From IMG/VR virus record IMGVR_UViG_2648501669_000026: a stretch of 12,061 nt of DNA, one strand, 5' to 3'. A model generated the notes under the pieces. It was given only the letters and a program-made list of their open reading frames with translations, had not been told where the DNA came from and did not search any database. Positions 1,485-12,061 of the stretch are shown here, piece after piece. Position 1 is the stretch's first letter. Each line of letters opens with the position of its first letter. The stretch comes from a virus. Its lineage: Duplodnaviria; Heunggongvirae; Uroviricota; Caudoviricetes. The position numbers were made by a program, and so were the translations under genes.

Positions 1485-2360
1485 ATGGAAAACACAATCA
1501 CGGTATTAACACCCGTTTTTAAAAACTGCCCGGAAATGACCACGATTGCATCGTGGCCCCGTAGTTTTGTATATCAAAAGGGACAATCTGAAGTCTCTTT
1601 GGTTATTCGTCTGATTGATATCATTGCATCAAAATACATGCACAGACACGCCGAGGAATATTGCGATATTACAGGGTATTGCCTGCCGTTAGTGCATAAA
1701 ATCAGTGATGAAGAGATGCGGGATATTGCGGAAGGTTGCGATATTGCCATTACACGCATCCGGCAAAAAATCCGCGAAGCAGAAAATAAAGTGACTGCTC
1801 AGGAAAATAAAATCAGCGAATTGCGTAACGCTCAGTTACAGCCCACGTGTGCTGATAACCCTTATGGTGATCGGTATTCAGTAAAAGACGTTATCGAGCA
1901 TGAAATGCGTCTGCTTGAAAATGAGAAACGGAATTGCGAAAAGACACGCGCTGTCTGTGAGCAGGCTATACGCCTTATTGGTACGGGGAAAAACCTTTCT
2001 CATGATGGCGGTAATGCGTGGATTTTTGCCGCTTCGTTTGACGGACTGGAGCCGGAAACAAATCGCCGTATCAATATTTATAAAGAGATTATTTCGGCTG
2101 TCAGTGCGATCGTCACTTTACGCAATGAAGAAATTAAGCACATTCCTTATTCAGTAATGGCTAAATACAACCATTTACGGCAGGAATATATTAATGATGC
2201 ATTACGTACTCTGACGAAGCATTATTACAGCAACGGCAGTGAAACCATCCGCCATGCGATGACGCTACAGGAATACACCGGAATAAGTATGCCACGAATT
2301 GAACGGGATGCGGCGACCGCTTTGCTGTCTGTACATACCGAAAAGAAAGATATTGTTTAA
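1485..2360 (+). CDS. Hypothetical 291-aa protein with a central coiled-coil; capsid-scaffold-like only by position and size
   Basis: ATG 1485 lies 5 nt after the alpA stop, with GGAG 8 nt upstream. Heptad-like charged segment IRQKIREAENKVTAQENKISELRNAQLQ. No family recognised; it does not match my recollection of P2 GpO. Confidence 0.55.
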   Translation: MENTITVLTPVFKNCPEMTTIASWPRSFVYQKGQSEVSLVIRLIDIIASKYMHRHAEEYCDITGYCLPLVHKISDEEMRDIAEGCDIAITRIRQKIREAENKVTAQENKISELRNAQLQPTCADNPYGDRYSVKDVIEHEMRLLENEKRNCEKTRAVCEQAIRLIGTGKNLSHDGGNAWIFAASFDGLEPETNRRINIYKEIISAVSAIVTLRNEEIKHIPYSVMAKYNHLRQEYINDALRTLTKHYYSNGSETIRHAMTLQEYTGISMPRIERDAATALLSVHTEKKDIV

Positions 2361-2370
2361 GGGGAAATGT

Positions 2371-3423
2371 ATGTTTTTTAATATTAATGACCTGAAAGAT
2401 AAAGCCGGAAGCGTGCTTGAAAATATCAATATTTCATCTCCAGCGGTGAACGAAAATGAAACTGACATTAATAGCGCGCTTGCAGAAAAAGATCTTTACG
2501 CACGCATCAGTGCATACACACAAAAAAATCCGTTTGTGCATTTTATTTCGCCCTCTAACTGGCTTTCCGGGCAAATAAAATACCTGTCAGTTAATCCGCA
2601 TCAGTCCGCTATTAACCTTATTGGGGATGCGCGCTTATCCACCGGACGCGCAGAGGAAGGACGCTTTAGCCGTGCCATGGATATTAAAGGCTCTCCGATT
2701 GAATGCTATGAGATGGACTCATGCGAATATCTCGACTGGATTAACTTGGTTGTGATGGCCAATGTGGCGAATGACGACAAAAACCGCGATGCACTGCTGG
2801 GGATTTTGTGTGGCTATCTGACCAGCAAAATTTATCTGGACGATCTGCGGATTGGCTTTAACGGCAAGTCAGCGGCAACCTTCACCACACCGGACACCAA
2901 CCCGAACGGCGAGGATGTTGCGCCCGGCTGGCATGAAATTGCCAGGAAGGCAAGCGAAGGACGACAGATTATCAGCGATGCCATTACGCTGGGCGCAGGT
3001 GGTGATTTTCCGGGGGTAGATGCACTGGCGCAGCATCTGATTAAAACGAAAATTGCCGCACAGTGGCAGAACGATCCACGCCTTGTGGTGATGGTGGGAT
3101 CAGAACTTGCAGCTGCCGAACGTCTGCGTCTTTTCAGCACCGCAAACGGCGCAGGAGATACCGAAGCCGCCAGCGCATGGGGAAGCACCATTGCCGGGCA
3201 TTTTGCCTTTGTGCCACCGTTTATGCCGGGTAAACGTCTGGCTGTGACCACACTCCCGAACCTGCTGATTAACATCATTGAAGGCTCTTACCGCACAGAG
3301 TTCGATATGAACAAAGACACCAAACGCCTGAACATGCGGGCATGGCGTCATCAGGGCTACGGGCTGGCGGATGTGAATCTTTACGCGGCAGTGGATGAGG
3401 GCGCGATTACGCTTAATCCGTGA
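2371..3423 (+). CDS. Putative P2 GpN-family major capsid-like protein (tentative)
   Basis: ATG 2371 with AAGGGG 5-6 nt upstream; the ORF-track start at 2299 overlaps the preceding gene and is rejected. Collinear motifs GFNG, NP-x3-DVAPGW, GAGGDFPGVDAL and DPRLVVMVGSEL match P2 GpN as I recall it (GFNG, DVAVGW, GKGGDYASLDAL, DPDLVVIVGRQL). Size 350 aa versus 357 aa for GpN. Based on memory only. Confidence 0.55.
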   Translation: MFFNINDLKDKAGSVLENINISSPAVNENETDINSALAEKDLYARISAYTQKNPFVHFISPSNWLSGQIKYLSVNPHQSAINLIGDARLSTGRAEEGRFSRAMDIKGSPIECYEMDSCEYLDWINLVVMANVANDDKNRDALLGILCGYLTSKIYLDDLRIGFNGKSAATFTTPDTNPNGEDVAPGWHEIARKASEGRQIISDAITLGAGGDFPGVDALAQHLIKTKIAAQWQNDPRLVVMVGSELAAAERLRLFSTANGAGDTEAASAWGSTIAGHFAFVPPFMPGKRLAVTTLPNLLINIIEGSYRTEFDMNKDTKRLNMRAWRHQGYGLADVNLYAAVDEGAITLNP

Positions 3424-3633: not shown

Positions 3634-3817
3634 GTTTGACAGCCTGATTGTTAGAGCGGGTAGCCGCTATATTTCCGTAATGCGGTTTTTTTGTGCCCGT
3701 AATTCCACCCTACCCCGTATTATGGCGGGGCGTAATGGGGGAGCCTTTGCGCTCGCTGGTTTCTCTAACGCCAGTCTGTCAACCCTGTTACGTCCCGCCA
3801 CCATGTTTGACAGCGTG
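3634..3817 (+). promoter_or_regulatory. Untranslated leader with a 13-bp repeat triplet, P4 seqA/seqB/seqC-like
   Basis: GTTTGACAGCCTG (3634..3646) and GTTTGACAGCGTG (3805..3817) are direct repeats, 12/13 identical. CAGTCTGTCAACC (3772..3784) is an imperfect inverted copy (11/13 pairing). A short hairpin plus T7 run sits at 3680..3700. No SD-supported ORF between 3465 and 3856. Confidence 0.3.
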
Positions 3818-7704: not shown

Positions 7705-8706
7705 ATGTCGATCAGAAAGATGGATGATGGGCGATGGCTGCTCGATATCAGGCCACAAGGGGCGTACGGCAAACGGATACGTAAAATTTTTGTCAGGAAA
7801 GGGAGTGCAGAGGCCTTCGAACAATATATTTTACAGAATTTCCATAACAACCCATGGCTGGCTAAACCTGCTGATCGGCGGCGATTATCAGAGCTGCTTG
7901 ATACATGGTGGATGCTTGATGGCCGTAACCAGGCTTACGGCGATACCTACAGGATCCGGCTGGAGAAAGTGATTCGTGAAATGGGAGATCCGCGCGCCAG
8001 CCAGATGACGCAAAAATTTATGCTTGAGTATCGGTCAGAGAAATTACAGGCCGGCTTAATGCCATCCAGCATTAATCGTGACTTGTGCGTTCTGTCTACC
8101 ATGTTCACGGTGCTGATTGAAGCAGGGGTCTTTCACAACCCGAACCCTGTGCGCAGTATACGCAAGCTAAAAATTCAGAATACAGAGATGGCCTTTCTTT
8201 CTGATGATGAGATTGAACGGCTTCTTGAGCGACTGGAGGGGGATGCGCGTCGTGTTGCCATTCTGTGTCTTTCTACTGGTGCCCGATGGAGTGAAGCATC
8301 GGAACTACGTGGAGAGCATATCGTTGGCAACCGTGTGACGTTTTTTAACACCAAAAACGGAAAATCCCGCTCGGTTCCTGTGGCGGATTCGGTCGTGCCG
8401 CTGATTAAAACCCGTCGGACGGGGTTGTTGTATCAGGTTGATTATCTGGAGTTCCGGGAGATTCTTCAGGAGGTTAAGCCGGATTTGCCGAAGGGGCAGG
8501 CTACGCATGTTATGCGTCATACATTTGCCACACACTTTATGATGAATGGTGGGAATATCGTTACATTACAACGGATTCTTGGACATGCGACTATCCAGCA
8601 AACGATGACTTATGCGCATTTTTCTCCCGACTATCTGGCGGATGCCATGAGGTTTAACCCGATAGCTAACATGGCATTCACTGAACAAAAAGAGCCAGCA
8701 GAGTAA
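7705..8706 (+). CDS. int: Tyrosine recombinase / integrase, P2 Int-like
   Basis: 333 aa. Catalytic-domain motifs AILCLSTGARWSEA, HVMRHTFATHFM and LGHATIQQTMTYAHF; N-terminal DGRWLLDIRPQG...GKRIRK. Close to P2 Int in length and motifs as I recall it. ATG is 2 nt after the primase stop and shares the SD AAGGAGGGGG. Confidence 0.92.
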   Translation: MSIRKMDDGRWLLDIRPQGAYGKRIRKIFVRKGSAEAFEQYILQNFHNNPWLAKPADRRRLSELLDTWWMLDGRNQAYGDTYRIRLEKVIREMGDPRASQMTQKFMLEYRSEKLQAGLMPSSINRDLCVLSTMFTVLIEAGVFHNPNPVRSIRKLKIQNTEMAFLSDDEIERLLERLEGDARRVAILCLSTGARWSEASELRGEHIVGNRVTFFNTKNGKSRSVPVADSVVPLIKTRRTGLLYQVDYLEFREILQEVKPDLPKGQATHVMRHTFATHFMMNGGNIVTLQRILGHATIQQTMTYAHFSPDYLADAMRFNPIANMAFTEQKEPAE

Positions 8707-9715: not shown

Positions 9716-10206
9716 GTGATGTTCATGACTGCAGATAGGGTGCCGTTCCGGCCTTTACCCTGGCAACCGATTGACGGGGAAGTTGACTTCCCCGTCGCGG
9801 TTCCTTACTGTGTAGACTTACATTGTAAGAATGCCGCAATTTCCGTTCCTGCAAACCTGAATCGCAACTCACAAGGTGATGTGTGGAGGATCCAGATTAT
9901 CGCTACTGCGGTTAAACACAGTAGCAGGGTTTTTAACGGAATTTGCGTCATAGCGCTTGCTCCTTTGGTGGAGAGGCGCTAACCTTCTACTTGTCAAGGT
10001 ACGAAGTGTTAGGGCCTCGGGTTAACATTAAAGTTGACTCGGGGCCTTTCCACATCTGGCCTTCGGGTATTCCCTCCGACCATCAGCCGAAAGGCACCCG
10101 CAGCGATTCTAGCCTGGTTGCCATACCCGCATCAATCACCCGCCACATCGCTTTATCGCTCGCAAATCAGCAACCTGACGCTACTTTACGTCGCTCTGTC
10201 CGGCAT

Positions 10207-10618
10207 TTTACGTCACCTCATCGCACCGCGTTTTATTCGTCCCTTCTGACCGTTCTGCCTCTCCCTGTTGTGAAGTTTTTTTCAGTTTCATTTTGTTCGC
10301 CGTATGCCGTCAGGGCGCGTCACGTCTGGATTTTCGCGAAATGCTGCCGGGCGTGAAATTCTGCCACCGGGCCAAACAGCCTCACGTAAAGTATGAAAAA
10401 GCCTTAAATATCATGAAAGTAGTCACGCGCAGCACAAAAAAAGAACTGAAAACCGGGAAGAAAAATTGCAAAAAATTTCACTGAATGAAATTTTGCTTTT
10501 GCACGAATCCCCAGAACTGACGCACCCTGCCAGCTATTTTTTCACACCAGAAAACTGAAAAAGTGTTTCGACACGAAACCCGCGGGTTGGAGGGGGTAGC
10601 GCGGTTTACGTCACCTCA
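10207..10618. repeat. 14-bp exact direct repeat TTTACGTCACCTCA (two copies) with several shorter related copies
   Basis: Exact copies at 10207..10220 and 10605..10618, 398 bp apart. Related TTTACG(T/C)(C/G) cores at 10185..10193, 10622..10632, 10636..10644 and 10740..10748; inverted copy at 10383..10390. Confidence 0.6.
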
Positions 10619-10690
10619 CGTTTTACGTCACGCCGTTTACGCGGCGTATGCATACAGCGCCAGAACGGCACACAGAAAGCTGATTCGGGG

Positions 10691-10726
10691 AGAAAATACG
10701 AAAACGCACGGCCTGAACCGTGCGTT
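10691..10726 (-). terminator. Rho-independent terminator for the 169-aa - strand gene
   Basis: 9-bp stem AACGCACGG (10703..10711) / CCGTGCGTT (10718..10726), 6-nt loop, then a U-rich tract on the - strand (complement of 10691..10702), 42 nt past the stop. Confidence 0.45.
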
Positions 10727-10767
10727 AATCAGGGCGCGTTTTACGCGGTTTTATGCGGGGCGTTTAT

Positions 10768-11277
10768 TCAGACCAGACCGTAGTCATTTGCGGTCGATTC
10801 ATCGTTGCTGGCAAAGCTGGCAGCCGCCTGAGTCATGGCTGATTTTAGCGGCGATGCTTCTGCTTCAAGCAATGTCCTGAGCTGGCTTAGTGGAATGCGC
10901 TGGCTGAACTCTGCCAGCCCTTCGCTAAAGCTAAATTGCTTTGGTGACTCATCACCACACGCAATCCATGCGAAGTCCTCAGCATCACCACGCTGCTTTA
11001 ACTCAAAGAAGCACGGGAAGTCAAACCTCTGGCAGAAGCGTTTAGCTCCGTCGATGGTGGAGAAGTAAGCCGCTTCCAGTCCGCCCTGTTCGTCGGGCAT
11101 GGCGACCACATACCTTACAGGCGCGCGCTCTTCCAGTTCCTGTGCAATTCCGGCGCAGAACGTCGGCGTATAGCCGCTGTTCGCAATCCTGTTCATCGCT
11201 CCCCGCCAGCCGAATGGGTTGTTTTCTGGTGTGCCGGCTCTGGTGTCGGTGCCTGTGAATATAGTTTTATTGCTCAT
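10768..11277 (-). CDS. Hypothetical 169-aa protein, monocistronic, divergent from hpt
   Basis: ATG at 11277..11275 with AGGA about 10 nt upstream. The only long ORF in an otherwise ORF-poor region; protein-like composition. No family recognised. It is not Gcd, which is the upstream neighbour of hpt in E. coli K-12. Confidence 0.6.
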   Translation of the reverse strand: MSNKTIFTGTDTRAGTPENNPFGWRGAMNRIANSGYTPTFCAGIAQELEERAPVRYVVAMPDEQGGLEAAYFSTIDGAKRFCQRFDFPCFFELKQRGDAEDFAWIACGDESPKQFSFSEGLAEFSQRIPLSQLRTLLEAEASPLKSAMTQAAASFASNDESTANDYGLV

Positions 11278-11524
11278 CTTTGTTTAATCCTGTTGATTGG
11301 TTGTCGACGTTGCGACCTGGCTGAATCATAACAGTGAGTAGAGCGGGCGCAAGTTGGTGTGAGGTGACACATAAGGTACAATTTGCGGCCTTAAAGTGTT
11401 CTCATGTGTTCTGGTGTTGTCTGCCTGCGATATTGTTTTGTGTATCAATTGGTGTATCAATATCGATATTTGCAGAGAATTAAAACGAAATTAAATTCAC
11501 TGAAATCAATGTGATAGGTTATTG

Positions 11525-12061
11525 ATGAAACATTATGTAGAAGTAATGATCCCCGAAGCGGAGATTAAAGCGCGTATCGCCGAACTGGGTCGTCAGATTA
11601 CTGAGCGTTACAAAGACAGCGGCAGCGATATGGTGCTGGTGGGTCTGCTGCGTGGCTCATTTATGTTTATGGCGGACCTGTGCCGTGAAGTTCAGGTATC
11701 TCATGAAGTCGACTTTATGACCGCCTCCAGCTACGGTAGCGGCATGTCCACCACCCGTGATGTGAAAATCCTCAAAGATCTGGATGAAGATATCCGTGGC
11801 AAGGACGTGCTGATTGTTGAAGATATCATCGACTCGGGGAATACACTGTCGAAAGTGCGTGAGATCTTAAGCCTGCGCGAACCGAAGTCGCTGGCGATTT
11901 GTACGCTGCTGGATAAACCGTCCCGTCGTGAAGTGAACGTCCCGGTAGAATTTATCGGTTTCTCGATCCCGGATGAGTTTGTGGTGGGTTACGGCATTGA
12001 TTACGCACAGCGTTACCGTCATCTGCCGTATATCGGCAAAGTGATTCTGCTGGACGAGTAA
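11525..12061 (+). CDS. hpt: Hypoxanthine phosphoribosyltransferase
   Basis: The protein [52 protein letters not shown]...[17 protein letters not shown]...GKVILLDE is near-identical to E. coli Hpt as I recall it, including the PRTase motif [16 protein letters not shown] 11525; the ORF-track start at 11522 is TTG. Stop at the window end. Confidence 0.95.

Follow-up and report, generated by a model that had tools for sequence, protein, structure and literature searches.

An orphan 169-aa gene before the attR site of a P4-like satellite in Escherichia coli: island cargo with a possible role in phage exclusion

Here, we identified the 169-aa gene that lies between hok/sok and hpt in the window (the whole stretch of 12,061 nucleotides analyzed in this study) as a gene that is almost certainly cargo of a P4-like satellite island. 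It is a swappable accessory gene of this island, and we tentatively propose that its product may take part in conflicts with phages. The features of the right end of the island are listed in Table 1.

Table 1. Features at the right end of the satellite island (positions refer to the window)
Feature	Position	Strand	Evidence
hok/sok type I toxin-antitoxin locus (hok coding sequence 9805-9951)	9805..10119	-	annotation and Rfam
Conserved non-coding block with GTTT(T)ACG repeats and terminator	10538..10726	.	shared with ETEC6333 prophage
Intrinsic terminator hairpin, AACGCACGGTTCAGGCCGTGCGTT then TTCGTATTTT	10703..10726	-	hairpin scan
169-aa coding sequence (orphan, acidic, histidine-free)	10768..11277	-	ORF calling; intact, purifying selection
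Shine-Dalgarno sequence AGGA, 10 nt 5' of the ATG	11288..11291	-	sequence reading
Putative extended -10 promoter element TG(T/C)TATGAT	11325..11333	-	conservation in alignment
Possible -35 element TTGCGC, 16-nt spacer	11347..11352	-	weak, 3/6 matches
Tandem TT(T/G)GTGTATCAA repeats, also beside the left integrase at attL	11437..11460	+	repeat comparison
attR core ATGAAACAT[TA]TGTAGAAGTAATG, hpt codons 1-8, right island end	11525..11548	+	three-way alignment

Distribution of the 169-aa gene

The distribution of the gene was examined by a megablast search of window positions 10686-11400 against 5426 complete E. coli genomes. The gene was found in only nine of these genomes, in each case at the end of a P4-like satellite, with no other gene between it and attR. 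In three carriers (A36, STEC313 and 52F4) the island occupies hpt, and the gene lies between gcd and hpt at the end of an island of ~13 kb. In the other six, argW (tRNA-Arg), by dsdC or the csc region, holds a related island whose left integrase is different; annotation was inspected for STEC316 and ETEC1716, and STEC367 and STEC306-308 were placed by the position and extent of the match. The 169-aa gene is again the terminal island gene at argW, and a homologous island of Yersinia enterocolitica shows the order AlpA, Phage_cap_P2, Toprim, Int, Ogr_Delta, HOK_GEF and 169-aa gene, followed by the chromosome. In K-12, gcd is the divergent upstream neighbor of hpt, as the preliminary description of this DNA had stated, and the two genes are adjacent at this empty site with no 169-aa gene between them. 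No copy at a conserved chromosomal position outside the island was seen among the carriers examined.

That description had offered two alternatives, namely a terminal cargo gene of the island or a lineage-specific chromosomal gene. The first is borne out, as the gene moves with the island to argW (six genomes) and to Yersinia and is missing at the K-12 empty site. The second, in which the gene merely adjoins hpt, can draw on the physical adjacency of the two genes in the window and nothing more. Against it stand the same absence from the K-12 gcd-hpt site and the same presence within islands at argW and in Yersinia, the fact that carriers at the hpt site are only three genomes, all with the island, and the position of the locus ~250 bp inside attR. 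The presence/absence pattern excludes a chromosomal gene, to which we assign practically no probability. A copy beside hpt in a genome lacking the island, which would have favored it, was not found: the gene is absent from the K-12 site and from sibling islands carrying mazEF, and all copies detected (9/5426) are island-borne.

The window is identical to no complete genome examined. Its overall identity to A36 is 92.5%, whereas the 169-aa gene is 100% identical, and a mosaic island is therefore indicated. The window remains homologous to the argW islands as far as 11330-11333, ~50 nt 5' of the ATG, and past this point the att module is particular to each island type.

The island end at hpt

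The junction was mapped by aligning the K-12 empty site, the A36 attL and the attR of the window. The island is inserted inside codons 1-8 of hpt: attL (L001 1906-1929) retains the native hpt promoter and ATGAAACATACTGTAGAAGTAATG before island DNA begins, and attR (window 11525-11548) consists of ATGAAACATTATGTAGAAGTAATG, followed by native hpt. Because the junction is inside these codons, all of the DNA that separates the 169-aa gene from hpt (11278-11524) belongs to the island, and the gene lies ~250 bp inward of the right end. An island/hpt junction had been placed at the gene before; it is indeed the last gene before attR, but the boundary is within hpt codons 1-8 and not in the gene-hpt spacer.

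By this insertion, the native hpt promoter and 5' end were left stranded beside gcd, and the island gives hpt a new promoter and 5' coding end (MKHYVEVM... vs MKHTVEVM..., Thr4Tyr). Expression of hpt in carriers thus depends on island DNA, since both the replacement promoter and the 5' end are island-derived. The TT(T/G)GTGTATCAA repeats probably serve the hpt-type att module as arm-type sites for the integrase.

Two roles connected with this location were considered and rejected. A regulator of hpt is not compatible with the occurrence of the gene at argW. A recombination directionality factor of the Xis, Cox or AlpA type would be a small basic DNA-binding protein, whereas the 169-aa protein is acidic (pI 4.6) and its gene occurs with two unrelated integrase/att modules, those at hpt and argW.

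An atypical P4-like satellite

The complete copy of the island contains, from left to right, the left integrase, a hypothetical gene, an AlpA-type HTH gene, another hypothetical gene, a gene annotated as 'P2 family major capsid protein', an Icd-like gene, four small genes, a toprim primase, a second integrase, Ogr/Delta, Hok, the 169-aa gene and attR. In A36, STEC313 and 52F4, the left integrase stands beside attL. A duplication of the att core was found, and the window begins just inside the island. The Pfam scan identified AlpA (PF05930, 6.1e-06) and Ogr_Delta (PF04606, 1e-10), and Toprim_2/3 was found in an 895-aa protein, the counterpart of the alpha-type primase. Psu and Sid were both sought with Pfam, and neither was matched among the ORFs scanned. 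A P2-family major capsid homologue (PF05125, 6.5e-44) is present together with a preceding 291-aa partner (window 1485-3423, +). Judged from its genes, the element works like a P4-type satellite, and it is an atypical member of this type because Psu and Sid were not recognized and a P2-family capsid homologue is found instead.

A capsid-like gene of its own looks unusual for a P4-like satellite, and a full-text literature search on the Pfam capsid name together with P4-like satellites found no description of such a case; sibling islands have a different, 423-aa homologue on the right arm.

A C4 antisense RNA (RF01695) was detected at 3718-3805 (+), with 72.8 bits (gathering score, 45) and an E-value of 5e-13, and the + strand operons of the island sit behind this C4/CI-type antisense RNA immunity region. 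The RNA lies within a stretch annotated as 'Icd-like' in related RefSeq records. A C4/CI-type RNA and an Icd-like gene are consistent with RNA-based immunity of the P4/P1 type.

Directly 3' of the primase is a second tyrosine recombinase gene (window 7705-8706, +). Over ~890 bases (7742-8632), its nucleotide sequence is ~88.7% identical to the integrase gene that a P2-like prophage of UTI89 carries beside cox at dmsA, and matches to this segment occur in >300 E. coli genomes. It is a helper-type integrase located in the middle of the satellite. The P2/P4 cos core GGCGAGGCGGGGAAAGCAC does not occur in the window with up to 3 mismatches allowed, and proximity to cos as in P4 was rejected on this account.

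The variable slot before attR

Sibling islands, in which the primase and second integrase are shared at 84-96% identity, occupy the same two sites; those of M15 and 08_3323 are at hpt, and those of ETEC4070 and ETEC1732 are at argW. On the right arm, they contain Ogr, two hypothetical genes, the 423-aa P2-capsid homologue, mazE-mazF on the - strand and attR. Here, mazEF has the same position and strand as hok/sok and the 169-aa gene have in the window, and the 169-aa gene is absent. Two states of the slot, hok/sok with the 169-aa gene or mazEF, were thus seen in the handful of genomes sampled. The comparison suggests that the attR-proximal slot is a hotspot; the term is thinly supported, since only two cargo variants were seen.

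The preliminary description had drawn an analogy to the accessory slots near the att site of P4-like elements. The att-adjacent position agrees with a minor hotspot between primase and att (PMC13586616), although the likeness is one of position only. As in P4 defense hotspots, variable self-contained cargo is carried by a P4-like satellite near the att site and 3' of the primase, and is swapped among related islands; it is also unannotated, as were many hotspot genes for which protection was later demonstrated (PMC9122126, PMC13586616). On the other hand, only two cargo variants were found here and the 169-aa protein matches no known defense family. The slot also differs from the P4 psu-int hotspot, and is not the classical one, because the island has no recognizable psu and the window has no P2/P4 cos core.

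One possible reading is that the protein is a life-cycle factor of one island sub-lineage, which would manipulate the helper by derepression, redirection of capsids or packaging, or interference. The lack of a recognizable Psu or Sid among the ORFs scanned would leave room for such a factor, and the 169-aa gene always occurs with the variant that has the capsid-like gene pair on the left side, the mazEF variant having a different capsid-like module on the right. However, the gene runs opposite to the island operons and is transcribed apart from them, beside a toxin-antitoxin locus, and a gene with a core hijacking function would not be expected to be replaced by mazEF. We consider this reading quite unlikely.

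An intact gene with its own signals

The reading frame of the 169-aa gene (10768-11277) has an ATG start and 169 codons and is intact. Its G+C content is 54.7%, compared with 46.5% in the window. The GGA of the ribosome-binding site is kept across all island types in the upstream alignment. The terminator-like hairpin (10726-10703) has 10 pairs, 6 of them G-C, and a T-rich tail, lies 41 nt 3' of the stop codon, and is conserved in the argW islands, Yersinia and an unrelated Mu/HP1-like prophage. The gene is monocistronic, because the nearest gene on the - strand is hok, ~750 nt beyond this terminator, and hpt (real ATG at 11525) is divergent on the + strand. All of these points, i.e., a monocistronic - strand gene with its own Shine-Dalgarno sequence and terminator that diverges from hpt, had been read correctly before.

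The extended -10 motif is the last block common to the hpt-type, argW-type and Yersinia islands, and between it and the ribosome-binding site lies a conserved leader (GGTCGCAACGTCGACAACC...). In both E. coli island types, a weak TTGCG(C/T) is found 15-16 nt 5' of the -10 motif. The consensus promoter scan did not list the extended -10 element at 11325-11333 and gave two other promoter-like sites on the - strand (11460-11432 and 11286-11258). From the conserved block, the 169-aa cassette seems to have its own promoter, independent of the + strand operons of the island.

All 169 codons are kept with 0 indels in the extracted E. coli copies (eight loci from different assemblies). The Y. enterocolitica orthologue has 80% nucleotide and 76% amino-acid identity, again with no indel. 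E. coli copies compared with one another give a dN/dS of 0.10-0.32, and the comparison between genera gives 0.23 at a dS of 0.65; on these values, the gene is under purifying selection. The ORF is thus a real gene, as indicated by an indel-free frame at 80% nucleotide identity together with dN/dS values of 0.10-0.32.

A functionless ORF, whether spurious or in decay, would agree with the orphan status and very few relatives of the protein, the low confidence of its structure models and an inconsistently annotated start. Some RefSeq records place the start at Met28, which gives 142 aa; codons 1-27 are open, and the changes within them weakly favor the third position (9/19), a pattern compatible with Met1 but too weak to exclude Met28. 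Nevertheless, such an ORF is very improbable given the full-length frame and the between-genera dN/dS described above, and the ribosome-binding site, -10 element and terminator are all conserved.

hok/sok and the adjacent non-coding sequence

hok/sok accompanies the 169-aa gene in every island seen. Hok has 48 aa, and sok matches RF01794 at 42.7 bits, under the gathering score; Stx-converting phages contain stretches ~91% identical to this locus. The non-coding block at 10538-10726 is 86% identical to a segment beside hok (L015 9790-9979) in the unrelated Mu/HP1-like prophage of ETEC6333. In that prophage, the neighbors of the shared block gave one Pfam match, the HP1 ORF34 baseplate protein, in an operon after the tail genes, and none matched PADLOC; for these reasons they provide no guilt by association.

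Several copies of the GTTT(T)ACG-type motif occur in both orientations at 10180-10760, on both sides of the terminator, with four exact copies at 10604-10745. No Rfam match was obtained for this region. These motifs may represent iterons or mark a site for replication or recombination. In the spacer that separates hok from the 169-aa gene, window 10380-10500 contains short elements common to E. coli, Yersinia and the ETEC6333 prophage, namely CACGTAAAGTATGAAAA and an inverted repeat AAAATTTCA-N5-TGAAATTTT. A 63-aa ORF at 10293-10484 has no Pfam match, and its internal ATG is lost in ETEC1716. Judging from the conserved elements, the spacer may hold a promoter or small RNA.

These neighbors raise the question of an addiction or toxin-antitoxin-like function, in which the 169-aa protein would act with an unrecognized RNA or small-peptide partner or modulate hok/sok. 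Such a function would fit the presence of mazEF in the slot of sibling islands, the constant adjacency of hok/sok and the conserved non-coding block downstream of the gene. However, no partner ORF adjoins this monocistronic gene, antisense ORFs vary in length in Yersinia, no tandem-repeat RNA was found upstream, and an acidic 169-aa protein is atypical for toxins. Moreover, hok/sok is self-sufficient, which counts against a need for modulation by the protein. We regard a function of this kind as improbable. Its standard forms were rejected: a type II system by a single gene between its putative promoter and its terminator, no Pfam match and antisense ORFs that are not conserved, and a type III system by the lack of a partner ORF and repeat RNA.

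Properties and relatives of the protein

The 169-aa protein has a mass of 18.5 kDa, a pI of 4.6, a net charge of about -8.5 and a GRAVY of -0.38 (moderately hydrophilic), and it contains zero histidines and four cysteines. Residues 28-55, 59-72, 87-109 and 121-133 are best conserved between genera. The protein matched 0 families in Pfam, NCBIfam and PADLOC at E-values up to 1, and the single PHROGs match (E = 0.33) was judged meaningless; no family had been recognized in the preliminary description either, and these searches agree.

A word-indexed search of 5.8 billion proteins retrieved only an E. coli cluster (187 members) and a Yersinia cluster; cluster members are also recorded in E. albertii and Salmonella, and all are labeled 'hypothetical protein'. 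When 1.84 billion representatives were searched exhaustively with phmmer, no credible relative emerged beyond the protein's own E. coli cluster. Three further matches were long proteins (TPR-like, Calx-like and a low-complexity repeat) and were judged spurious, i.e., repeat-driven artefacts, because they are internally repetitive and each aligned in 5-10 stretches. The protein had no tblastn match in 50,697 phage records or in the plasmid collection, and the gene was not found in the one-genome-per-species scan. The viral and metagenome contig scans returned one copy each, both in the same island. A literature search for WP_032082674, the only accession tried, returned no paper, and no paper combined P4-like, hpt and gcd.

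Structure prediction was of poor confidence. AlphaFold reached a pLDDT of 45.8 and a pTM of 0.45 with three sequences, the E. coli one first, and a pLDDT of 38.6 with the Yersinia sequence first; in both models, two helices are followed by two strands, one helix, a second pair of strands and finally three helices. The models are unreliable and provide no trustworthy fold. The best match of a profile search of PDB sequences was a dendrotoxin (E = 0.55), and Foldseek against viral models gave a best E-value of 0.095. Remote-homology and structure analysis, the checks suggested at the outset, thus yielded no relative outside the protein's own clusters and no reliable fold.

The protein is more likely a binder than an enzyme, because it is histidine-free and has no recognized domain. 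As the models are unreliable (pLDDT 45.8 and 38.6), the non-enzymatic reading is drawn mainly from the missing histidine and domains. If the gene is active, its mechanism would have to be worked out from scratch, since there is no histidine, no recognized domain and essentially no relative to build on.

Small size and acidity are traits common among anti-restriction and anti-defense proteins such as Ocr, ArdA (~166 aa) and KlcA. The 169-aa protein is like ArdA, KlcA/ArdB and Ocr in size, acidic pI, the lack of a recognized catalytic domain and carriage on a mobile element. In a counter-defense role, it would inhibit a host defense (restriction-modification, RecBCD or another) by mimicry or binding and so protect incoming satellite DNA. 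This role could account for an 18.5-kDa, histidine-free protein of pI 4.6 with no recognized domain, and the promoter-like element of the gene would permit early expression. However, neither ArdA, KlcA nor any other Pfam model was matched (E-values up to 1), and a net charge of -8.5 is small by the standard of DNA mimics, which are typically far more strongly charged. Counter-defense is therefore an unlikely function in our estimate.

A possible role in phage exclusion

We tentatively favor phage exclusion by binding, with the 169-aa protein as a moron-type cargo protein, and we place the likelihood of this proposal somewhat short of even. The cassette has the anatomy of a 'moron', i.e., opposite strand to the island operons, its own terminator, an apparent promoter of its own and higher G+C. 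The gene would be transcribed independently of the satellite lytic program, including in the integrated state. Its product would be small, soluble and acidic; if the low-confidence models are followed, its core would be alpha/beta and its C-terminal part helical. The most likely mode of action of such a protein would be stoichiometric binding to another macromolecule, not catalysis. The bound target could be a phage, helper or host component, such that competing phages would be excluded. Its role would then most likely be in conflicts among mobile elements, where it would exclude phages of no use to the satellite or abort their infection, as has been demonstrated for many unannotated genes of P4-like hotspots.

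The prophage morons, such as tin and old of P2 and gop-beta-cII of P4, share with the cassette a promoter-like element and a terminator, an orientation opposite to the operons, a G+C content above that of the element and a dispensable position at the element end. The features of a moron found here are the terminator, the conserved extended -10 element, the G+C difference (54.7% vs 46.5%) and the replacement by mazEF, and transcription is predicted. The cassette differs from these morons in that no sequence relation was found by tblastn in the 50,697 phage records and that expression in the integrated state is a prediction here.

hok/sok and mazEF, the neighbor and the replacement of the gene in the slot, are addiction modules of kinds linked to phage exclusion. 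For hok/sok, a link of this kind is indicated by a reference cited in a study of PICIs (PMC11364771). In PICIs, immune genes are found at the 5' or 3' ends (PMC11364771). The psu-int locus of P4 is a documented defense hotspot (PMC9122126), and a 2026 survey placed 7% of P4 defense systems between the primase and an att site, a minor hotspot (PMC13586616). In the same survey, six of eight randomly picked unannotated P4 hotspot loci were protective against phages (PMC13586616). However, these success rates concern the main psu-int hotspot rather than the attR-proximal slot, of which only two cargo variants were seen. PADLOC gave 0 matches and no tested defense protein was homologous, and the promoter is deduced from conservation, having been missed by the consensus scan. 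Since the protein resembles nothing known, the proposed role in phage conflict is drawn from the position of the gene.

Another comparison is offered by Tai (tail assembly inhibition), a single-gene immunity of PICIs, prophages and P4-like satellites (PMC11364771). Like the 169-aa gene, Tai genes are single unannotated satellite accessory genes that PADLOC and DefenseFinder do not recognize (PMC11364771). A difference would be that no relative of the 169-aa protein was detected beyond the island copies of E. coli, E. albertii, Salmonella and Yersinia.

A broader proposal would be that the protein represents a new single-gene family with an unrepresented fold, which acts in phage exclusion or counter-defense from a second, attR-proximal swap slot in a capsid-encoding P4-like lineage. 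This combination is possible and, in our view, doubtful as a whole. Unannotated hotspot genes of such a kind number in the thousands, and nothing in the evidence points to an unusual mechanism.

Implications

The placement of the 169-aa gene is corrected by this analysis, in that it is island cargo and not a chromosomal neighbor of hpt. As a candidate it is cleanly delimited, and nature supplies swap controls, as its exchange for mazEF in similar islands at two integration sites allows near-isogenic comparisons. If active, the protein would add one more unrelated single-protein module to the conflict genes borne by satellites, and the Ogr-to-attR interval of this satellite lineage would be marked for mining.
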